Assembly (NCBI GenBank): GCA_015488295.1
Contig: WFOC01000003.1
Span: 1-52,421 of the forward strand
Length of the DNA: 52,421 nt
From: Gammaproteobacteria bacterium
GTDB lineage: Bacteria; Pseudomonadota; Gammaproteobacteria; SZUA-229
Reading direction: 5' to 3'
In this document: positions 129 through 8,296 of the stretch, piece by piece
Position numbering within the stretch: position 1 is the stretch's first letter
Layout: each line of letters begins with the position of its first letter
Translations under genes and position numbers: made by a program
The notes under the pieces: model-generated
What the model saw: only the letters and a program-made list of their open reading frames with translations
The model's database searches: none
What the model was told of the DNA's origin: nothing

Positions 129-2495
129 TTAAAAAACACTAGATTTAGAGTTAATCAAATCAGGCATAATACCTAAAAAATCAGGGTCATACTCATAAGT
201 ATCTGTCCATGAAAAAATATTGTCTTGAAAACAATTTACAATAGGATTCAATTTTAGCTTGTCTATTTTTTGCATCCAAAGTTGTACAGAGTTATTTTGT
301 AAATCCTGCCAATCAACTGGGAACCCATGTTCAAGTTTTTCTACTAATTTAACATCAACAATAACCATCGCTGTATCAGAATCAATAATACGATATTTTG
401 TTGACACCTCCTGAAAGCCTTGTTTTTGTTCTTCTAACAGTAATAGCTCTGATTTAATCTTTTTATCTGGAAACCGAGAAAGCTCTTTGCGAATAGCTTT
501 ACTACAAAGCTCGCTGCCATCTATTTTGTCGCCAATAATTTCCGACCACATGTTATTTAAAATATCAGATGACTCTTTAAAGCCTGGATGATGGTTAAGA
601 CTTTCTTCAGCAAAAACAGAAAAGTCAAACAATCGACCAAAAGTTCGCCTTCCGTGACGATTTATTCGCCCTGACACTTGCAAAAAACTGGTTACTGAAC
701 AGGTTTCTCGAAAGCCAATGGCAAAATCCAAATCGACACCGGCCTCAACACAACTAGTAGCAACCAAATACCACGGACGGTGTTTCCAGTCGCTATCACC
801 TTGTCTATGGATCACCTCGCTCAGCATTCTATCTCGATCTTTGGGTGCCAAAGCGGTCGATAGATGCAAAACAACTTTATTGGATAATTCATTTTTTTTG
901 TCATCTAAGCTTTTGGCCAGCGCATCCGCAATGACTGCTGCTGATTGCACTGTATTTAAAATCACCAAGCACGATGGCTTGTCCTGATTAACAAGTTCAC
1001 CCCATATTTCATCCGATTGTATATGTGCAAGCAGATCATCACGTTTTAATGCATTTTCAATTCGGTCAAAAATAACCCGGCGACCTTCTGCATGTTGTGT
1101 TTTTTCTTTTAATGACTCAGATAACAAGTCAGGTAAAGTGCGAGTATCTTCTTCACTAACAAGATATTTGTCTTTCCAAAACTGAACCATCGAACCTGAT
1201 GAAAAAACTAAGTTGCATCGCCATGTATCGGCCAGCTGTTTCATCCAATACCAACTGATATTCAATAATTCGGAAGGCAAACAAGCATGAGATTCATCGA
1301 TAAAAATTGCCGCGCCTACCACATTATGTAACTTACGAAGTTTAGATGGATTAGAGGCTGCGAATGTTTCAAAAAACTGTACTGCTGTTGTGACTATGAT
1401 TGGTGCTTGCCAACTGGCTGCATATTGGCGCATATCCTTGTTACTAAACTCTGCTTTGTGATGATGTGCAACAACAACAGATGCGGCATTTTCACCGTCT
1501 AATACAACTGCCTTGCGTAAAACCTTAACCGTCTGATCAATGATATTAGAAAAAGGTGCAATAACAAATATTCGACTGGCATCATCTCTAATGGCACAAC
1601 GAAGTAAATAAGCCATAACCGAGGTTGTTTTACCCAAACCCACAGGGGCTGTGCAGGCGACCAAACGAGAATCATGCAATTCACCGTCAAAGCAGCATCG
1701 ATAAAATTCACTTCGCATTTGATTGCGATCACTATAAGGGTCACTGCTAGAAACAACCACCTTTTTGATATAGTTATCTAAAGCAACTAATCGTTGTTGC
1801 CAGCGCGTATTAGCAGGTTTAAAGCATGTCATCGGCTTACCCTGACTATAATAAGCCGCACTGCTATGATCTGCATCGACCAGAGTAGACAACATCAAGC
1901 GTGGCATTAAGCTAGTAGATGGCAGTTTCAAACTGAGCTCAGGCCACTGGCCACAAGATTTTATCTGCCGTTCTTTATAAACCTCTATTCTTTCATTCGT
2001 AGTGTCTATTATAATTTTGTGCTTATCAAAATCTGCCGTGAGTTTGTCTCGGTGATGACGTCCACCCCGTAGACTATAAGGTGACAAAGTTAGCTGGAAC
2101 TTCTGCCTTAACTGCTTAATAAAATACTTCTCTGTTTTTTTACTTGGCAAACCCGGCGCATGATGTCCACGAATTAGCCAGCCCAGCAGTTCATTTTTCA
2201 TCTCATCAGCAACGGCAACACCCGCTTCGATATGATCGACAGGCAAGCTGCCTGACTCTTCACCGCGAAATATTTGTTGAATAGACTCATCCAACTTGCC
2301 CATATCATGCAACATCAACGCTGCTTTAAAGGTTTGACGTAGATCAGTTTTCTCAGCGTCAGCTAATTTGGAAAATGACAAAAGATAATCAAATAAACCA
2401 AGCCCATAATCCAGCATCTCACTAATATGATCAGCATATCGGTGTGCTTCCCTCTCAGGATTTTCTTTAGGGGGCGTATGAGCAATATATTCCAT
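129..2495 (-). CDS. cas3: CRISPR-associated HD nuclease/SF2 helicase Cas3
   Basis: N-terminal IAH, HD motif LHDMGK, GHH, LVDADH; Walker A APVGLGKT, motif II IDESH, VEAGVDLDF, motif VI QVSGRINRHG; abuts cas7. Confidence 0.95.
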   Translation of the reverse strand: MEYIAHTPPKENPEREAHRYADHISEMLDYGLGLFDYLLSFSKLADAEKTDLRQTFKAALMLHDMGKLDESIQQIFRGEESGSLPVDHIEAGVAVADEMKNELLGWLIRGHHAPGLPSKKTEKYFIKQLRQKFQLTLSPYSLRGGRHHRDKLTADFDKHKIIIDTTNERIEVYKERQIKSCGQWPELSLKLPSTSLMPRLMLSTLVDADHSSAAYYSQGKPMTCFKPANTRWQQRLVALDNYIKKVVVSSSDPYSDRNQMRSEFYRCCFDGELHDSRLVACTAPVGLGKTTSVMAYLLRCAIRDDASRIFVIAPFSNIIDQTVKVLRKAVVLDGENAASVVVAHHHKAEFSNKDMRQYAASWQAPIIVTTAVQFFETFAASNPSKLRKLHNVVGAAIFIDESHACLPSELLNISWYWMKQLADTWRCNLVFSSGSMVQFWKDKYLVSEEDTRTLPDLLSESLKEKTQHAEGRRVIFDRIENALKRDDLLAHIQSDEIWGELVNQDKPSCLVILNTVQSAAVIADALAKSLDDKKNELSNKVVLHLSTALAPKDRDRMLSEVIHRQGDSDWKHRPWYLVATSCVEAGVDLDFAIGFRETCSVTSFLQVSGRINRHGRRTFGRLFDFSVFAEESLNHHPGFKESSDILNNMWSEIIGDKIDGSELCSKAIRKELSRFPDKKIKSELLLLEEQKQGFQEVSTKYRIIDSDTAMVIVDVKLVEKLEHGFPVDWQDLQNNSVQLWMQKIDKLKLNPIVNCFQDNIFSWTDTYEYDPDFLGIMPDLINSKSSVF

Positions 2496-3397
2496 TAGCC
2501 ATCCACTAAATCACGCACATCTTTAAATCGATCTAGTAAATCACCCAAACCATCTTTCTCAGGAATATCGTAATCATTAGCTGATGCAGACTTTTTTACG
2601 CCTGATTTTAATTTAGGCATTAATGCATTGATAAATAAATGTTCAGGACAAGAACCTAAGGTGTTTTTATGTTCCGCAAACCAGGCATGTAAAACCGAAA
2701 TTTGTGGTCGAATCGCAGAAGCTGTATGTTGATACACATAAGGCAGCATAAATTTCAGCAAATCCAAATCCTCGTTAGTTGCTCCCGTTTTTTTTGCAAT
2801 ACTCGGATTTACAAAAATAGGAATGCAATAGATACCATGCTGCACTACTCTAAATGCCAAAGGTGCCATTCCACGGTCTTTATCAGCTTCTACTCCTGAC
2901 TTATTAGTATTAGTCATTCGAACAACATCGATAGGAGCAATCGACATGCCAACGCCTATTTGTGTCGCACCAGTATTAATTAAATGATCATATCCACCTT
3001 CTGATTTTTTATTTTTTTGTTCTTTACTCAATTCAGAATCTTTTAACGACTCTAAAAAAGTATTACCAAACATACGAGCATCCCAATAAGTTTGCATAAA
3101 CTCAGATTTATCCATGGCCTTGATTACATCCCTATCGCGACCCCGATCTTCCAATATCTTAAATTGATTATGTGTATTTTCACCAAGACTGAGCTGCTGT
3201 TTAGCTACGGCAAAAACTTCAGAATCATCACTCACCAAGTCTCGCAACTTACGCTTTAGCGAAACAGGCGAGATCATTCCCAAACCATCTAGCTCACGAG
3301 TTCTAGGCTCTGATTCCATATCTGGATCGCCGTTCGGATTGGACATAGCGACATCTAAAACCAACAAACCAACATGGCGATTAAAAGGTGCATTCAT
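2495..3397 (-). CDS. cas7: type I-C (Csd2-like) Cascade backbone Cas7
   Basis: SNPNGDP, SPVSLKRKLRD and WDARMFG motifs typical of Cas7/Csd2/Csh2; 300 aa; 1-bp overlaps with both neighbours. Confidence 0.93.
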   Translation of the reverse strand: MNAPFNRHVGLLVLDVAMSNPNGDPDMESEPRTRELDGLGMISPVSLKRKLRDLVSDDSEVFAVAKQQLSLGENTHNQFKILEDRGRDRDVIKAMDKSEFMQTYWDARMFGNTFLESLKDSELSKEQKNKKSEGGYDHLINTGATQIGVGMSIAPIDVVRMTNTNKSGVEADKDRGMAPLAFRVVQHGIYCIPIFVNPSIAKKTGATNEDLDLLKFMLPYVYQHTASAIRPQISVLHAWFAEHKNTLGSCPEHLFINALMPKLKSGVKKSASANDYDIPEKDGLGDLLDRFKDVRDLVDG

Positions 3398-3816
3398 TAT
3401 TTTTCTCCCTGATTATTATTTGATATGTTTTTTTGTTCAAAAGGACGACCAGCTAAATAGCCCAGCATAAGTTCAGATTTGTAAGTATCAGATTTAACCA
3501 TCGAACTAGAGAAGAATTCATTTAATGACTTCGCTTGCTTGCTCATCCAAATTTGAGCAAAAATAGCTGCAGTTATAGCCTTATCCTCTGATCGAATATT
3601 TTTGGCCATCATTCGCTTAACCCAAGAATCATAAGGCCGTCTACGAGTAGCCATAAAGTCCATTGCTTTAACTGGGTTTTGCAAAGCCATTCCGTACACC
3701 TGATTACCAATTAAGGTATTGGGAATATCTCCTTTTCGCTCACTTTTGCAATAACCAATATGCAACTCATCCATAGCAGAACATAACTGCCCTAGCTGAA
3801 AAGCAAAATCATTCAT
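3397..3816 (-). CDS. cas11: Cas11 small subunit translated from an internal in-frame start in cas8c (139 aa)
   Basis: AAAGGAG-atctat-ATG in frame at 3816 (MNDFAFQLGQL...), as established for type I-C cas8c genes. Confidence 0.7.
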   Translation of the reverse strand: MNDFAFQLGQLCSAMDELHIGYCKSERKGDIPNTLIGNQVYGMALQNPVKAMDFMATRRRPYDSWVKRMMAKNIRSEDKAITAAIFAQIWMSKQAKSLNEFFSSSMVKSDTYKSELMLGYLAGRPFEQKNISNNNQGEK

Positions 3817-5505
3817 ATAGATCTCCTTTGTTCGTCCAATTTTGTATAAGAGCACAGACATCAATGTGACCGCACTCAAAGATTGTGTATTGTTTTTAGG
3901 ATGAGTTTTTATATGAGCCTTGGCTTGCAACACACTCTGCAACCGGCTTAAAGCACAATAATTCAATAGAGGCTGATATTGCTCAGCAATATGTTGCAAA
4001 CAACGCTTTGCCAAGGTTTGATTATTTTTTCCGAGAAATAATTTCATCACATCAGCAAAGCTGATGCTGGGTAGACTTGTTGATACCGTACCATCTCGAA
4101 TGTATTTTTGGCGTGACAGATACATTACCTGTTGGGGGCTAATAGCCCAAGGTGAGCACATCTTCTTTTCAGTATTGTGCATTTGTGCATACAGTTTAAA
4201 ACTGGGGGAATTTTGACAAGCTTGTTTCCATTGCTCAGCAGCCCGAACCAACTCCCTAACTTTCGCAGTTGTACGAAAGTTGATTTTACGGTTAGCCTTA
4301 TCCAAAACGATAATTTCAGCAAAATCGATTACCACATCGAGACTCAGATTCTTGCCTTTAAAAGTGGCTATCACCGACTCGGTTGCATCAAGATAATCAT
4401 CAAAATCATCAATTTCTGACTCACCTGTAATCAAAGGGGTAAGTGATAGATCCCAATCTTCCTTGCAATAGACCAACAACAAACTGGGAGATGCCCCTAT
4501 GTTTGAAGGTAGCTTTGACCAAATTTTATTTTTAAATTTTGCTGAATTAATAAAGGAGATACTGGCCGCCAGCTTCTGGCTAAGCTTATTGGAAACCGAA
4601 AAGGCCGCACCACCAGAGGCATTGTATCGTCTCACCGTAGGACCACTGGTAGTCGCATTTTTAGCAAACAAAGTAGTACTTCCTACAATATTCAATTTTT
4701 CTTTTGGAAATATATCGTAAACGACCCGCCCAACATCTCCCGTTAAAGCACATTCATCATTTCGGGTCTTTCTATTGGTCTTTGATTCTGCTGTGAACAA
4801 AGCCCTCGAAAGGCCAGCTACTTGATCTCTGGATGATGCATAGATATCAATATCACTCTCTGGAAAACAATCGAGCATTAATGTAATACGCTTGCCATCT
4901 TTAACTTCACCTTTAGGTGTCACATCATCACCAAACAGTAATGTACAAATATGCTTTAATGTAAATGCATCTGCCCCCTGAATAATCAATTCAATTAAAC
5001 GATTGGCGACTTGTTCAAGTATTTCTAGCCCTGTTTCCGTTTGACTGTATCGTTCAAACAGCTGATTAACAGCCTCACAACCATCAATGCCAGCCAACTG
5101 ATCTTTACGCGCTAATATCTGCTTTCGGTAACTTGGCCACATTTTGATGTGAGATAAATCAACTGAATACTGTTGTGACAAATTTTTAATTAATTTACGA
5201 TACTCATCTTCACTAGGCTTGCTGTTTTTTTCTTTCCAAGCAAGATAATCCATATGCCCTTTTGCTAACAAGGGATATACGACCTTAACCGCCGGAAACT
5301 GATTCTTATTACCATTACCCAGAGACCAACTGTCCTGAATCTGCTCTTTGGTCATTAGCTTAACTGAGGATACCTTACCATGCTCATCCAGCATCACCCG
5401 AAATGTTGTGCCCGTACCCGGTGACTGAATATCGTTATGCTTGATTGTCGGGGATTCACCAACGGCCTCCAACCCTCGGTAAATTGAATAGAATTCATTC
5501 AACAT
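3397..5505 (-). CDS. cas8c: divergent Cas8c/Csd1-like large subunit (about 702 aa)
   Basis: Lies between cas5 and cas7; CALTG motif and C-terminal AFQLGQL...LMLGY helical domain. Start moved to ATG 5505 (MLNEFY), overlapping the cas5 end by 11 bp. Confidence 0.8.
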   Translation of the reverse strand: MLNEFYSIYRGLEAVGESPTIKHNDIQSPGTGTTFRVMLDEHGKVSSVKLMTKEQIQDSWSLGNGNKNQFPAVKVVYPLLAKGHMDYLAWKEKNSKPSEDEYRKLIKNLSQQYSVDLSHIKMWPSYRKQILARKDQLAGIDGCEAVNQLFERYSQTETGLEILEQVANRLIELIIQGADAFTLKHICTLLFGDDVTPKGEVKDGKRITLMLDCFPESDIDIYASSRDQVAGLSRALFTAESKTNRKTRNDECALTGDVGRVVYDIFPKEKLNIVGSTTLFAKNATTSGPTVRRYNASGGAAFSVSNKLSQKLAASISFINSAKFKNKIWSKLPSNIGASPSLLLVYCKEDWDLSLTPLITGESEIDDFDDYLDATESVIATFKGKNLSLDVVIDFAEIIVLDKANRKINFRTTAKVRELVRAAEQWKQACQNSPSFKLYAQMHNTEKKMCSPWAISPQQVMYLSRQKYIRDGTVSTSLPSISFADVMKLFLGKNNQTLAKRCLQHIAEQYQPLLNYCALSRLQSVLQAKAHIKTHPKNNTQSLSAVTLMSVLLYKIGRTKEIYMNDFAFQLGQLCSAMDELHIGYCKSERKGDIPNTLIGNQVYGMALQNPVKAMDFMATRRRPYDSWVKRMMAKNIRSEDKAITAAIFAQIWMSKQAKSLNEFFSSSMVKSDTYKSELMLGYLAGRPFEQKNISNNNQGEK

Positions 5506-6151
5506 AGCAAAACACCCCCTTTTTAATCCATGCTTCTTCACCTTGCTGGAATCGTGGTTTGTATTGTCCATTTACCGCTTTATCAAAGACCTGATTAAGT
5601 ACCGACACCAAATCCAGACTGATTTTGGTATCAACCTCTGTTGCATCAGGATGAGTCTCATCATCACGAAGGGGTCCCCAATAGCTGGGGACAAACTCAT
5701 TCCAACCAAGTGCAGGCGTTTTATGACATTGGCCTTTTTTTAATCTACGTTTAAAAATTGCCTCCAGAGCATGACAAGGGTTATTTCCATGTTTTAGATG
5801 CTGACCACTGCCATTCTCCACAACCCCATAAATTCGATAACAAACATCAGACAGAATTAAACTCGAAAATTGGAAGTTGACCTTTTTCTTATCCTTCAAT
5901 GGACCACGATAATTATTGGTATACTTTTGAAAACTCACATCGCCGCCGCTGGCACCTTTTCTCTTGCAGATTTCCACCCTTGTGGGGCGAATCCATGCTT
6001 TTCCATCGTTAAAAAATGCGACCGACTCAAATATCCCTTTCACCGCAGACCATGTTGGCACGGGATAACTTGTAGGTGTTGCACCAGTGTCAGGGCGTGA
6101 CCACATGGCAAAAGGCCCTGATATTTCCATTGCTATTTCATATTTACTCAT
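5495..6151 (-). CDS. cas5: Cas5 (Cas5d-like, type I-C)
   Basis: EISGPFAMWSRP, SYPVPTWSAVKGIFES, LSDVCYRI and PALGWNEF motifs; GAGGA RBS upstream. Confidence 0.93.
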   Translation of the reverse strand: MSKYEIAMEISGPFAMWSRPDTGATPTSYPVPTWSAVKGIFESVAFFNDGKAWIRPTRVEICKRKGASGGDVSFQKYTNNYRGPLKDKKKVNFQFSSLILSDVCYRIYGVVENGSGQHLKHGNNPCHALEAIFKRRLKKGQCHKTPALGWNEFVPSYWGPLRDDETHPDATEVDTKISLDLVSVLNQVFDKAVNGQYKPRFQQGEEAWIKKGVFCYVE

Positions 6152-6189: not shown

Positions 6190-6597
6190 TTACAAACTCT
6201 CTTTGCTGGCAACAAATACTACTAACTCAACACAATAACACGGTCTTTTTTCAGGAATAAGCAGACTAATCTCACCCTCTAGTCCCACACCATCATCAAG
6301 CATCTGTGAAATACTCATATTAGCCATTCTCGGTATATATCCCAGCATATTCCCCTTCCAGTAAACCTCAACCGCACGTTTATCATATTTATTTTCTGAC
6401 GCGCGACACAGTTGTACTGTATCACCTATTTTTATATGGTTAAACAAATCCTCACCTTTGTAATACTGGAAGCCAGCGATGCTAGTTTGCAGCAGTTTGA
6501 CTGGTTTAGTCTGATTGATATTATTACTGCTGCTTGCTGGCAGGGCTGTGGTGCCTGCGATGCCTAGCAATGCCTGTAAGAAACCACGTCTTTTCAT
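6190..6597 (-). CDS. HIRAN-domain protein with twin-arginine (Tat)-like signal peptide (135 aa)
   Basis: IAGFQYY, L.R..ENKYDKRAVEVY, LGYIPR HIRAN motifs; N-terminus MKRRGFLQALLGIAGTTALPA; GAGG RBS 9 nt before ATG 6597. Confidence 0.85.
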   Translation of the reverse strand: MKRRGFLQALLGIAGTTALPASSSNNINQTKPVKLLQTSIAGFQYYKGEDLFNHIKIGDTVQLCRASENKYDKRAVEVYWKGNMLGYIPRMANMSISQMLDDGVGLEGEISLLIPEKRPCYCVELVVFVASKESL

Positions 6598-6630: not shown

Positions 6631-6664
6631 ATTATCCTGAGGCGGTGGCTCATTTGGTGAGCCA
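6631..6664 (-). promoter_or_regulatory. putative WYL-regulator site (TGGCTCA-N5-TGAGCCA) plus -10 element of the HIRAN-cas operon
   Basis: Perfect 7-5-7 inverted repeat at 6646-6664; on minus strand TGAGCC-N10-GATAAT. Confidence 0.55.
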
Positions 6665-6709: not shown

Positions 6710-6740
6710 ATATCAGAAAAATTTGATGACAATAATGTCT

Positions 6741-6985
6741 ATGAGCAAAAAGGATAAGTTAAAAAGGAAGTTATTAAGCGGGTCTGATTTTACCTGGCAA
6801 GAACTGTCATTTTACTAAAGTTTCTGGAATTTGAAGAGGTACAGGGCAGTGGGTCTCGCGTTAAGTTTGATGATGGCTTTGCAGATCATATGATTAATCT
6901 GCACCGGCCTCATCCTGACAATAATTTGAAACGATATGCGATTAAACAAGTCATCGCTAAGTTGAGTGAGGTTGATTTGTTATGA
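6741..6985 (+). pseudogene. hicA: HicA-family mRNA interferase toxin, frameshifted
   Basis: Frame 1 MSKKDKLKRKLLSGSDFTWQEL stops at TAA 6816-6818; shifted frame continues ILLKFLEFEEVQGSGSRVKF...LHRPHPDNNLKRYAIKQV...LL* with TGA overlapping the hicB ATG (ATGA). Confidence 0.85.
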
Positions 6986-7317
6986 AGTTTTTAAGATATA
7001 AAGGGTTTTATGGCTCTATAGAAGTAAGCCTGGAAGATGATTGTTTATTTGGAAAACTGGAGTTTATTGATCCACGGGTAAACTATGAAGCTGATACAGC
7101 ACATGGTCTCGAGCACGCCTTTAAAATGGCCGTTGATAATTATCTGGCCGACTGCCAGGCACTTGGTCAGGAACCTGCCAAGCCATATAAAGGCTCGTTT
7201 AATGTACGCATCGGTTCAGAGCTACATAAAAAAGCACTTATAGCGGCTAAAGAAAAAAGTATGAATTTAAATGAATTTGTCAGACAATCTATCCAGCATG
7301 CAATAACATCCTCCTGA
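6982..7317 (+). CDS. hicB: HicB-family antitoxin
   Basis: YKGFYGSIE, AVDNYLADC, P.KPYKGSFNVRIGSELH with C-terminal RHH-like segment. Confidence 0.92.
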   Translation: MKFLRYKGFYGSIEVSLEDDCLFGKLEFIDPRVNYEADTAHGLEHAFKMAVDNYLADCQALGQEPAKPYKGSFNVRIGSELHKKALIAAKEKSMNLNEFVRQSIQHAITSS

Positions 7318-7321
7318 CCTT

Positions 7322-8296
7322 TTATTGATAAAGCTGCGCCATACAGTAAATTTTTCTTTTTACCGCGTTACGCAAGCTGGCCGGTTTTATCACTTCGACA
7401 TCGCTGCCATATTTTAAAAGATCCATAATTAATTCAGTCGGGTTGCCGTAAGGTAGGCGCAGTTCGTAGTAGCCGTTATCTAACCATGTTGATTGTTGCT
7501 GTGGATGCCACTGTTCCTCCGCTACCCAGCGGGCGCGTTCTGGGGTGAAGTGTAAAACGGCGGTGTGTTTGGCTGCGCCGGAAAAAATGCCAAATGCCGA
7601 GGTAAAGTAGCTGTTAAGTTCGTCCTCACTGATGTGTCTGGCTTTTTGTTTTAATTGATGGGCGTATTCGATACGTTCGACAGCGAAGGTGCGAAATTCA
7701 TTTCTTAGATGACACCAGGCATCCAGATACCAGTTGTTGCGGTAATAAATAAGCCGCTGTGAAGAGATTGTGCGACTGACGGCTTCGGTATTTTGTCTAC
7801 CTCGATAACGGATCTTAAGTTGTTTTCGTTGCAACACGGCATTGGTAGTGTGGCGAAATATGGTGTTGTCAAAATGCCTGTTAGCAATAGAAAGGATGCG
7901 AATGCGCCTGCTTATTTCGTCACTGGATTGGCCGGTTTTTTCGAGCAGAGTTTCGATGCGTTTTCGCAATGGGTTAATTTGCTGACCATATACGCCGGGG
8001 TCAACGCGTTCGAGCAAGGTGTGTGAGGTGAGTAAAGCATGTAATTCGGAGGTATTGAACCAGAGACCGGGTAATTCATAAGGATGGTCGGCATATTGGC
8101 TCTGGTCATAGTAATAACCGTTTTTTTGTCGATCATATTTTATCGGCGCATCGAGATACAGACGCATTTTTGCAATCAAACGTTTAGCACTCGATGTTGC
8201 GCATTCAAGTTCTTCCATAATGCGAGTGAGTGGAACGGGATGTTTATGGCTGCTTAACAATCCATGCAGTGCGTAAAAACGGTCAAATCTTTCCAC
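7322..8296 (-). CDS. WYL-domain transcriptional regulator (wHTH-WYL-WCX, YafY/PafC-like)
   Basis: N-terminal HTH, NWYLDAWCHLRNEFRTFAVERI, C-terminal YGSDVEVIKPASLR; GTG start with GAGGT RBS. Confidence 0.95.
   Translation of the reverse strand: MERFDRFYALHGLLSSHKHPVPLTRIMEELECATSSAKRLIAKMRLYLDAPIKYDRQKNGYYYDQSQYADHPYELPGLWFNTSELHALLTSHTLLERVDPGVYGQQINPLRKRIETLLEKTGQSSDEISRRIRILSIANRHFDNTIFRHTTNAVLQRKQLKIRYRGRQNTEAVSRTISSQRLIYYRNNWYLDAWCHLRNEFRTFAVERIEYAHQLKQKARHISEDELNSYFTSAFGIFSGAAKHTAVLHFTPERARWVAEEQWHPQQQSTWLDNGYYELRLPYGNPTELIMDLLKYGSDVEVIKPASLRNAVKRKIYCMAQLYQ

Follow-up and report, generated by a model that had tools for sequence, protein, structure and literature searches.

The known steps of CRISPR-Cas immunity are cytoplasmic. 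The closest described accessories that tie CRISPR loci to the cell envelope are CorA and TM-CARF (10.1101/270033), optional genes of mostly type III loci that encode integral membrane proteins. The gene analysed here is likewise optional, but its product, a HIRAN-domain protein, is soluble and likely exported, and the loci that carry it are mostly type I, with types V-A and III represented once each.

Described HIRAN domains include those of HLTF and Rad5 (PDB 4S0N, 4XZF, 5BNH, 6KCS), and the fold is shared by lp_0118 of L. plantarum (3K2Y), which is uncharacterised. In HLTF, where the domain is fused to a translocase, D94 is reported to contact the 3'-OH and Y72 and Y93 to sandwich the final two bases (PMC5773155; PMC4666394), and a dinucleotide was co-crystallised with the domain (PMC4666394). 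Stand-alone bacterial HIRAN domains were still termed uncharacterized in a 2024 report (PMC11090510). In a defence setting, bacterial HIRAN domains are described in HipN and HipL of HipA-kinase modules (10.1101/2021.04.14.439929) and in PADLOC PDC-M03B; those of HipN and HipL are, as that account presents them, fused to HipS-like or kinase domains. In contrast to these systems, the HIRAN domain considered here stands alone behind an export-type leader, in a defence operon that appears to be under WYL control and that has neither a kinase gene nor a HipS part.

The transcription factors PafBC, DriD and DdaA share an HTH-WYL-WCX architecture. DriD is described as an activator that responds to single-stranded DNA (ssDNA) and recognizes CGXC-N7-GXCG (PMC10853764), and DdaA as an activator of CRISPR-Cas and restriction-modification promoters (10.1101/2024.11.11.622897). 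The available portion of the DdaA account does not mention HIRAN as a first gene.

The window, by which we mean the whole 52,421-nucleotide stretch of DNA that was analysed, contains the following features around the HIRAN gene.

129 to 2495, minus strand: cas3 (HD nuclease-helicase); the contig end lies just beyond.
2495 to 3397, minus strand: cas7.
3397 to 5571, minus strand: divergent cas8c (PADLOC Cas8c, E 1e-177).
5495 to 6151, minus strand: cas5 (type I-C).
6190 to 6597, minus strand: HIRAN gene with a Tat-type leader, 135 aa (translation, PF08797, structure model); leader about residues 1 to 21, linker 22 to 32, HIRAN domain 33 to 130.
6535 to 6597, minus strand: the twin-arginine-type leader, M-K-R-R-G-F-L followed by an uncharged run (TIGR01409, below its cut-off).
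6631 to 6636, minus strand: -10-like hexamer GATAAT, a putative promoter element 10 nt downstream of the operator.
6647 to 6663, no strand: palindromic operator GGCTCA-N5-TGAGCC, putative WYL site and best genome-wide matrix match.
6735 to 7317, plus strand: hicA (frameshifted; the name rests on its position and its resemblance to an intact relative) and hicB, inserted between the WYL gene and the operator.
7322 to 8296, minus strand: HTH-WYL-WCX transcription factor of PafBC/DriD architecture, the putative activator.

Translation of the minus strand from 6597 to 6190 gives 135 amino acids that open with MKRRGFLQALLGIAGTTALPA, and a GAGG is found 9 nt upstream of the ATG at 6597. The HIRAN gene is the first of a type I-C operon in the order HIRAN, cas5, cas8c, cas7, cas3, and is separated by 38 bp from the cas5 start at 6151 on the same strand. 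An earlier note on this DNA had described an RRxFL leader, a Ser/Asn linker and a single HIRAN domain at this distance from cas5, and translation, Pfam and the structure model all confirm that description. Co-transcription with cas5, which the note had assumed, is likely in view of the common operator and promoter, the short gap, and the fact that no minus-strand terminator was found between the operator and cas5. A Pfam search found one HIRAN domain in the genome. A 180-aa in-frame reading from the TTG at 6732 was rejected because it spans the operator and promoter and because homologues begin at the MKRR methionine. The earlier note had not mentioned the WYL gene, nor the operator or the inserted hicAB genes, all of which lie upstream of HIRAN. 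The hicB gene is intact in the window and in L132, L133 and L135 alike; of the four hicA copies, only that of L135 is intact, the window copy being frameshifted, the L132 copy having a stop and the L133 copy an interruption. The I-C variant with the cas5-cas8-cas7-cas3 order (129 to 6151 in the window) also occurs in L004, L073, L133, L136 and L138; its divergent Cas8 is 724 aa long and is matched by the PADLOC Cas8c model, with no match in Pfam.

The single domain of the window protein matches PF08797 at 61.8 bits (cut-off 24.7, E 5.7e-17). The AlphaFold model (mean pLDDT 82, low in leader and linker) has the HIRAN fold of solved structures, a six-stranded barrel with two helices, and aligns with lp_0118 (3K2Y; Foldseek E 1.3e-6; VIA Z 15.6, rmsd 2.1, 101 residues aligned) and with the HLTF domain (6KCS; VIA Z 11.9, rmsd 3.0, 97 aligned). 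In an HMM alignment, Y72, Y93, D94 and N91 of HLTF correspond to Y45, Y71, D72 and N69. D72 is present in all 149 homologues and N69 in 146; position 45 is Tyr, Phe or His in 147 and position 71 is Tyr, His or Phe in 141. The 3'-OH pocket residues of HLTF are thus intact in the window protein, as the earlier note's premise of 3'-end recognition would have it, and by analogy the protein is predicted to bind free DNA 3' ends. The counterpart of HLTF R71 is Gln. A Trp that is near-invariant in the family (139/149) is Cys at window residue 120, in a diverged C-terminal loop common to the closest relatives; the HMM alignments end before the position of HLTF F142, and no equivalence of that residue with the family Trp was assigned. 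With the homologue P0039 as query, an Atlas search gave HIRAN clusters plus a single unnamed cluster.

The PDC-M03B models match the window protein at E 2e-15 and cover only the C-terminal ~100 of ~250 model positions. Identity with the HipN/PDC-M03B antitoxins was rejected, since the protein is 135 aa long, matches in the HIRAN part only, and has WYL, hicAB and cas genes as neighbours (compare the descriptions excerpted from 10.1101/2021.04.14.439929 and PMC11706625). Leaderless HIRAN domains of the same subfamily are fused, N- or C-terminally, to PcfJ-like proteins (P0183, P0195, P0196, P0200 and P0201). Among the matches listed for 26 longer homologues there were no fusions to Cas, WYL or periplasmic domains.

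Several observations indicate that the leader is a conserved feature of the family. Species genomes were scanned for relatives with a motif taken from the core only, and the best 80 of 95, ranked by the full-length query, were kept; these comprise 71 main loci and nine that were set apart by a Sec-type leader. The earlier note had named conservation of RRxFL in homologues as a check, and in the best 80 of 95 the motif RR-x-hydrophobic-hydrophobic is held in 49 of the 71 non-Sec loci, with one-residue variants (RK, KR or R-x) in 14 more, 63 in total; five of the remaining eight have no motif in the 62 residues examined and three have no intact reading frame. In L057 the RR sits just beyond the 62-residue stretch. 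For comparison, among 1300 genome ORFs of at least 250 aa only 5 have the motif within their first 15 residues. In the 149-member alignment, which leans towards leader-bearing proteins because the search profile included a leader, R3 is found in 120 members, R4 in 133 and F6 in 104. Lys is most frequent at position 8, matching the Tat consensus, and positions 10 to 20 are at least 92% hydrophobic or small, nearly uncharged and of low identity; the linker varies in length from 10 to 138. A TATFIND-like rule passes 98 of 155 proteins (163 of 194 had the anchor motif, 155 of these with a long enough N-terminus) and 18 of the 1300 genome ORFs. Of 150 leaders, 66 contain AxA, where shuffling gives a mean of 44 and at most 58, and the hydrophobicity of the h-region, 1.46, falls within the 1.29 to 1.97 of seven Tat-like leaders of the same genome. 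The pN/pS ratios among five close copies are 0.24 for the leader and 0.19 for the core (uncorrected, from non-independent pairs), indicating that purifying selection acts on both.

The curated Tat model is less clear. TIGR01409, which is short, gives the window leader 13.1 bits against a cut-off of 16.7, and only 11 of the 149 members match it at E 0.1 or better; this shortfall lowers the Tat label but not the export reading. TatC was identified by profile in the window genome, with tatA/tatB-like ORFs alongside, and in 50 of 50 hosts tested from those of the 71 loci, yet it is also present in 11 of 14 control genomes and so carries little weight. Cysteine counts fit a Poisson distribution with no even-number bias. 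Some Balneolaceae leaders are degenerate and barely hydrophobic. The leader looks like a genuine export signal, of the Tat type by its motif though not by the curated HMM.

Of 77 upstream regions, 14 contain the operator with up to two mismatches (0.2 on average and at most 2 after shuffling), the consensus having been derived from that same set. When a matrix was built from 13 sites with the window excluded, the window site ranked first in the genome, at 32.5 against 17.4 for the next site; one strong site suggests that the switch is local, as opposed to a global regulon. An AT-rich -10-like run occurs at the same spacing in homologous operator sites. A sigma-70 scan, whose counts were at chance level, did not pick up the putative promoter, and an apparent plus-strand terminator at 6646 to 6664 proved to be the operator palindrome. 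The solved structure that best matches the WYL protein is PafBC (E 1.6e-12), and the HTH-WYL-WCX architecture together with a palindrome at the target promoter is that of PafBC/DriD-type regulation. Written as GCTC-N7-GAGC, the operator has the 4-N7-4 spacing of the reported DriD site with different letters. In relatives, the operator follows WYL in three of seven WYL loci showing no HIRAN (two of the seven being incomplete in sequence), in two cases directly before cas1 or cas3. The presence of the operator before cas genes where HIRAN is absent argues that the box is part of the WYL-cas promoter, with HIRAN as an optional first gene. In L002, HIRAN follows the WYL operator even without cas genes.

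To describe the neighbourhoods of the relatives, neighbouring genes were clustered by BLAST and named through Pfam matches of representatives; the labels are approximate, and the cas3 of L033 is a doubtful fragment. In the 71 main loci (best 80 of 95), cas genes are present in 43, in 41 of them within 1.5 kb downstream on the same strand; a WYL gene is present in 40, and both WYL and cas in 28. Of the 59 loci (best 80 of 95) with at least 2 kb of downstream sequence, 38 have cas genes; of the remainder, seven have WYL only and 14 lack both. The first downstream cas gene in the 41 closely linked loci (best 80 of 95) is cas3 in 20, cas1 of the I-F type in nine, cas6 in three, cas2 in three and cas5 in two, with cas4/cas1 (L017), csb1, cmr1 and cas12a once each. 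The front end of WYL, operator and HIRAN precedes loci of types I-C, I-F, I-G, I-E, I-B-like, III and V-A, and neither fixed co-occurrence nor co-evolution with one effector type was found. At the scale of the order, Cas1 was found in 17 of 97 genomes and HIRAN in 7 of 97. The link between HIRAN and defence recurs in about ten phyla and at several positions within cas operons, and non-cas neighbours are often defence genes such as type I restriction-modification, RtcB and toxin-antitoxin pairs. In three Balneolaceae loci (L075, L077 and L081), HIRAN lies between cas1 and cas2 and its leader is degenerate. No relative was confirmed in viral contigs (0 of 27 candidates), and none was present in 50,697 phage records; the one relative in 72,556 plasmids adjoins a manganese catalase gene.

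The HIRAN tree (77 rows, 102 columns, unrooted) shows that closely related HIRAN genes front different Cas types. Cas type is scattered over the tree, with I-F requiring eight changes for eight rows; sister HIRANs about 0.02 apart front I-C and I-F, and a pair with support 100/99 fronts I-C and Cas12a. The Cas12a member is L060 (2138 to 6397), in which WYL-HIRAN stands immediately before cas12a-cas4-cas1, and its sister L015 stands before I-C. A metagenome search returned 12 loci, nine true close relatives and three spurious leader-only matches. Among the close relatives, a single WYL-hicAB-operator-HIRAN front end precedes the I-C variant, a cas3-first operon and an I-F operon. Broken copies are common: a stop or frameshift interrupts 5 of the 71 HIRAN genes (best 80 of 95), the leader and first strand have been lost in three of the nine close metagenome loci, and a deletion precedes an I-F operon in one relative. 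The occurrence of near-identical HIRANs before different Cas types, together with these broken copies, identifies the gene as an optional accessory and not a Cascade subunit. As a module, HIRAN moves together with the WYL/operator front end irrespective of the Cas type that follows.

The nine Sec loci (L028, L029, L040, L045, L051, L054, L058, L059 and L066), whose classic Sec-type leaders were judged by eye, form one nested branch (100/96) that is sister to a Tat, cas-linked member (98/92). They are mostly betaproteobacterial and lie in a housekeeping operon of the rsmI / yraN / SIS / BON region, with HIRAN directly behind yraN and mostly overlapping it; the yraN motif was seen in seven of nine and confirmed by Pfam in four of four tested. 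YraN is described as a nuclease of natural transformation (PMC13663708). None of the nine has WYL or cas, and the core pocket motif is retained. This clade is a domesticated and probably periplasmic form. The exchange of a Tat for a Sec signal is the best sign that export is a selected trait, and it points in that direction; because Sec export is of unfolded, and thus cargo-free, protein, its occurrence beside a transformation gene favours a job that is done after export.

The reading we favour, to which we assign a probability of roughly 40%, is that the protein is a WYL-induced, Tat-exported 3'-end binder, which would capture incoming DNA within the periplasm. Its steps differ in strength. 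Gene order, leader, fold, pocket residues and operator are direct observations. By analogy with PafBC, DriD and DdaA, ssDNA would very probably bind the WYL protein, which on the palindrome over the -35 region would activate transcription of HIRAN-cas5-cas8-cas7-cas3. The folded HIRAN protein would, with similar probability, be exported by Tat to the periplasm. That it would clamp a 3'-OH end between two aromatic residues, with the Asp reading the hydroxyl as in HLTF, is the strongest of the steps. The last step, in which periplasmic HIRAN would hold the ends of phage, conjugative or transforming DNA and slow entry while Cas proteins accumulate, is speculative. Against it, neither a periplasmic partner or nuclease nor a membrane sensor is encoded alongside, and a binder on its own catalyses nothing. 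Phage DNA usually passes the periplasm within the tail channel, which also counts against a trap, as do the leaderless PcfJ-like fusions, the rarity of HIRAN and the broken copies. That the protein might also detect incoming DNA, as the earlier note had suggested, is unlikely without an encoded transmembrane partner for signalling.

The preference for Tat would be explained if the protein were instead a feedback sink that reaches its folded state in the cytoplasm, takes hold of short ssDNA pieces by their 3' ends (products of Cas3 or of damage, and inducers of WYL) and leaves through Tat with its cargo, so resetting the WYL alarm or releasing DNA as a signal. Tat transports folded, ligand-loaded proteins, and the twin arginines are kept in WYL- and cas-linked members, whereas the clade that switched to unfolded export has neither gene in any of its nine loci; HIRAN also follows the WYL operator in L002, where cas genes are absent, and a bound dinucleotide is on record for the HLTF domain. 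We nevertheless think the sink unlikely. The switch from Tat to Sec is one event, a correlation with n = 1, the pocket motif retained in the Sec clade suggests a job after cargo-free export, and Tat export of nucleic-acid cargo has no precedent known to us. It is equally unlikely that HIRAN is a passenger carried by the WYL promoter, in which case it would be a gene for envelope or DNA-damage functions, have no CRISPR role and be kept between the operator and whichever defence operon is swapped in. The operator directly before cas in HIRAN-less loci, the frequency of broken copies, the 14 of 59 long loci without WYL and cas, and the plasmid copy beside manganese catalase would all fit a passenger; purifying selection on leader and core, recurrence over about ten phyla and in positions that include the space between cas1 and cas2, and the other defence genes among non-cas neighbours would not.

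The position between cas1 and cas2 raises the possibility of a cytoplasm-side helper of spacer acquisition, for which the leader would be an uncleaved tether or a slow-export timer and HIRAN would hold prespacers or injected DNA by their 3' ends for Cas1-Cas2/Cas4. The only module common to all the Cas types fronted is adaptation, HIRAN precedes cas4/cas1 in L017 and cas1 in nine loci, and the degenerate leaders are those of the cas1-cas2 copies. I-F operons, however, normally begin with cas1. The full n/h/c pattern of the leader, the AxA excess and the replacement by a Sec signal are at odds with a tether, none of the listed matches of the 26 longer homologues is a Cas fusion, and cas1 was absent from the matches in the window genome (an 88% complete assembly whose contig ends after cas3), all of which makes the helper a doubtful candidate, a little below the two preceding. 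A physical subunit or partner of Cascade or Cas3 is the least credible proposal, and we consider it highly improbable. The earlier note had suggested looking for such a partner by pull-down with Cas8/Cas7/Cas3, and cas3 is adjacent in 20 and cas5 in two of the 41 closely linked loci (best 80 of 95); a specific link is not supported, given that near-identical HIRANs front I-C, I-F and V-A effectors, and the same front end three different cas operons in close relatives, that 7 of 59 loci have WYL and HIRAN without cas and 14 of 59 neither, and that the gene is often broken where cas is kept. Export, moreover, would part HIRAN from Cascade.

It is conceivable, if somewhat against the odds, that type I, III and V loci share an extracytoplasmic arm in which an ssDNA alarm leads to a Tat-exported DNA-end clamp that intercepts foreign DNA or carries fragments out. 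If true, prokaryotic adaptive immunity would gain a step at the envelope from a recurring, type-independent gene for a likely exported DNA-end binder, or else the WYL ssDNA alarm a new means of reset. Defence would then include a protein whose handling of nucleic acid extends across the inner membrane, and stand-alone bacterial HIRAN domains would have a function assigned. The module is small, consisting of 135 aa, one regulator and one 17-bp site.

A signal-bearing or cas-linked HIRAN was not found described in the literature searched; the 2006 HIRAN paper and the supplementary tables of surveys of CRISPR-linked genes (including PMC10910872) may list the family. The term HIRAN is absent from the main texts of 10.1101/270033, PMC4012209, PMC10910872 and PMC12887000 and from three supplements of PMC12669027, and PMC7464499 does no more than cite the 2006 paper. 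The gene thus appears to be an undescribed but widespread and real accessory module, built of known parts, with a surprising predicted location and a putative function.

Some relatives carry further variations on the locus. Two close relatives encode an unannotated protein of about 350 aa in the stretch from HIRAN to cas5, and a third has it upstream of the operator (L133, 2429 to 3478; L136; L140); a PADLOC search gave no match for it. In L039 a tandem pair of HIRAN genes follows WYL, and the first copy has no twin arginines. A separate contig (C51; L082, G000) begins with an array at 6 to 770 of 12 identical 32-bp repeats with 33-36-bp spacers, followed by ORFs that we take to be iscR/iscU-like; this array probably belongs to the I-C system of the window.
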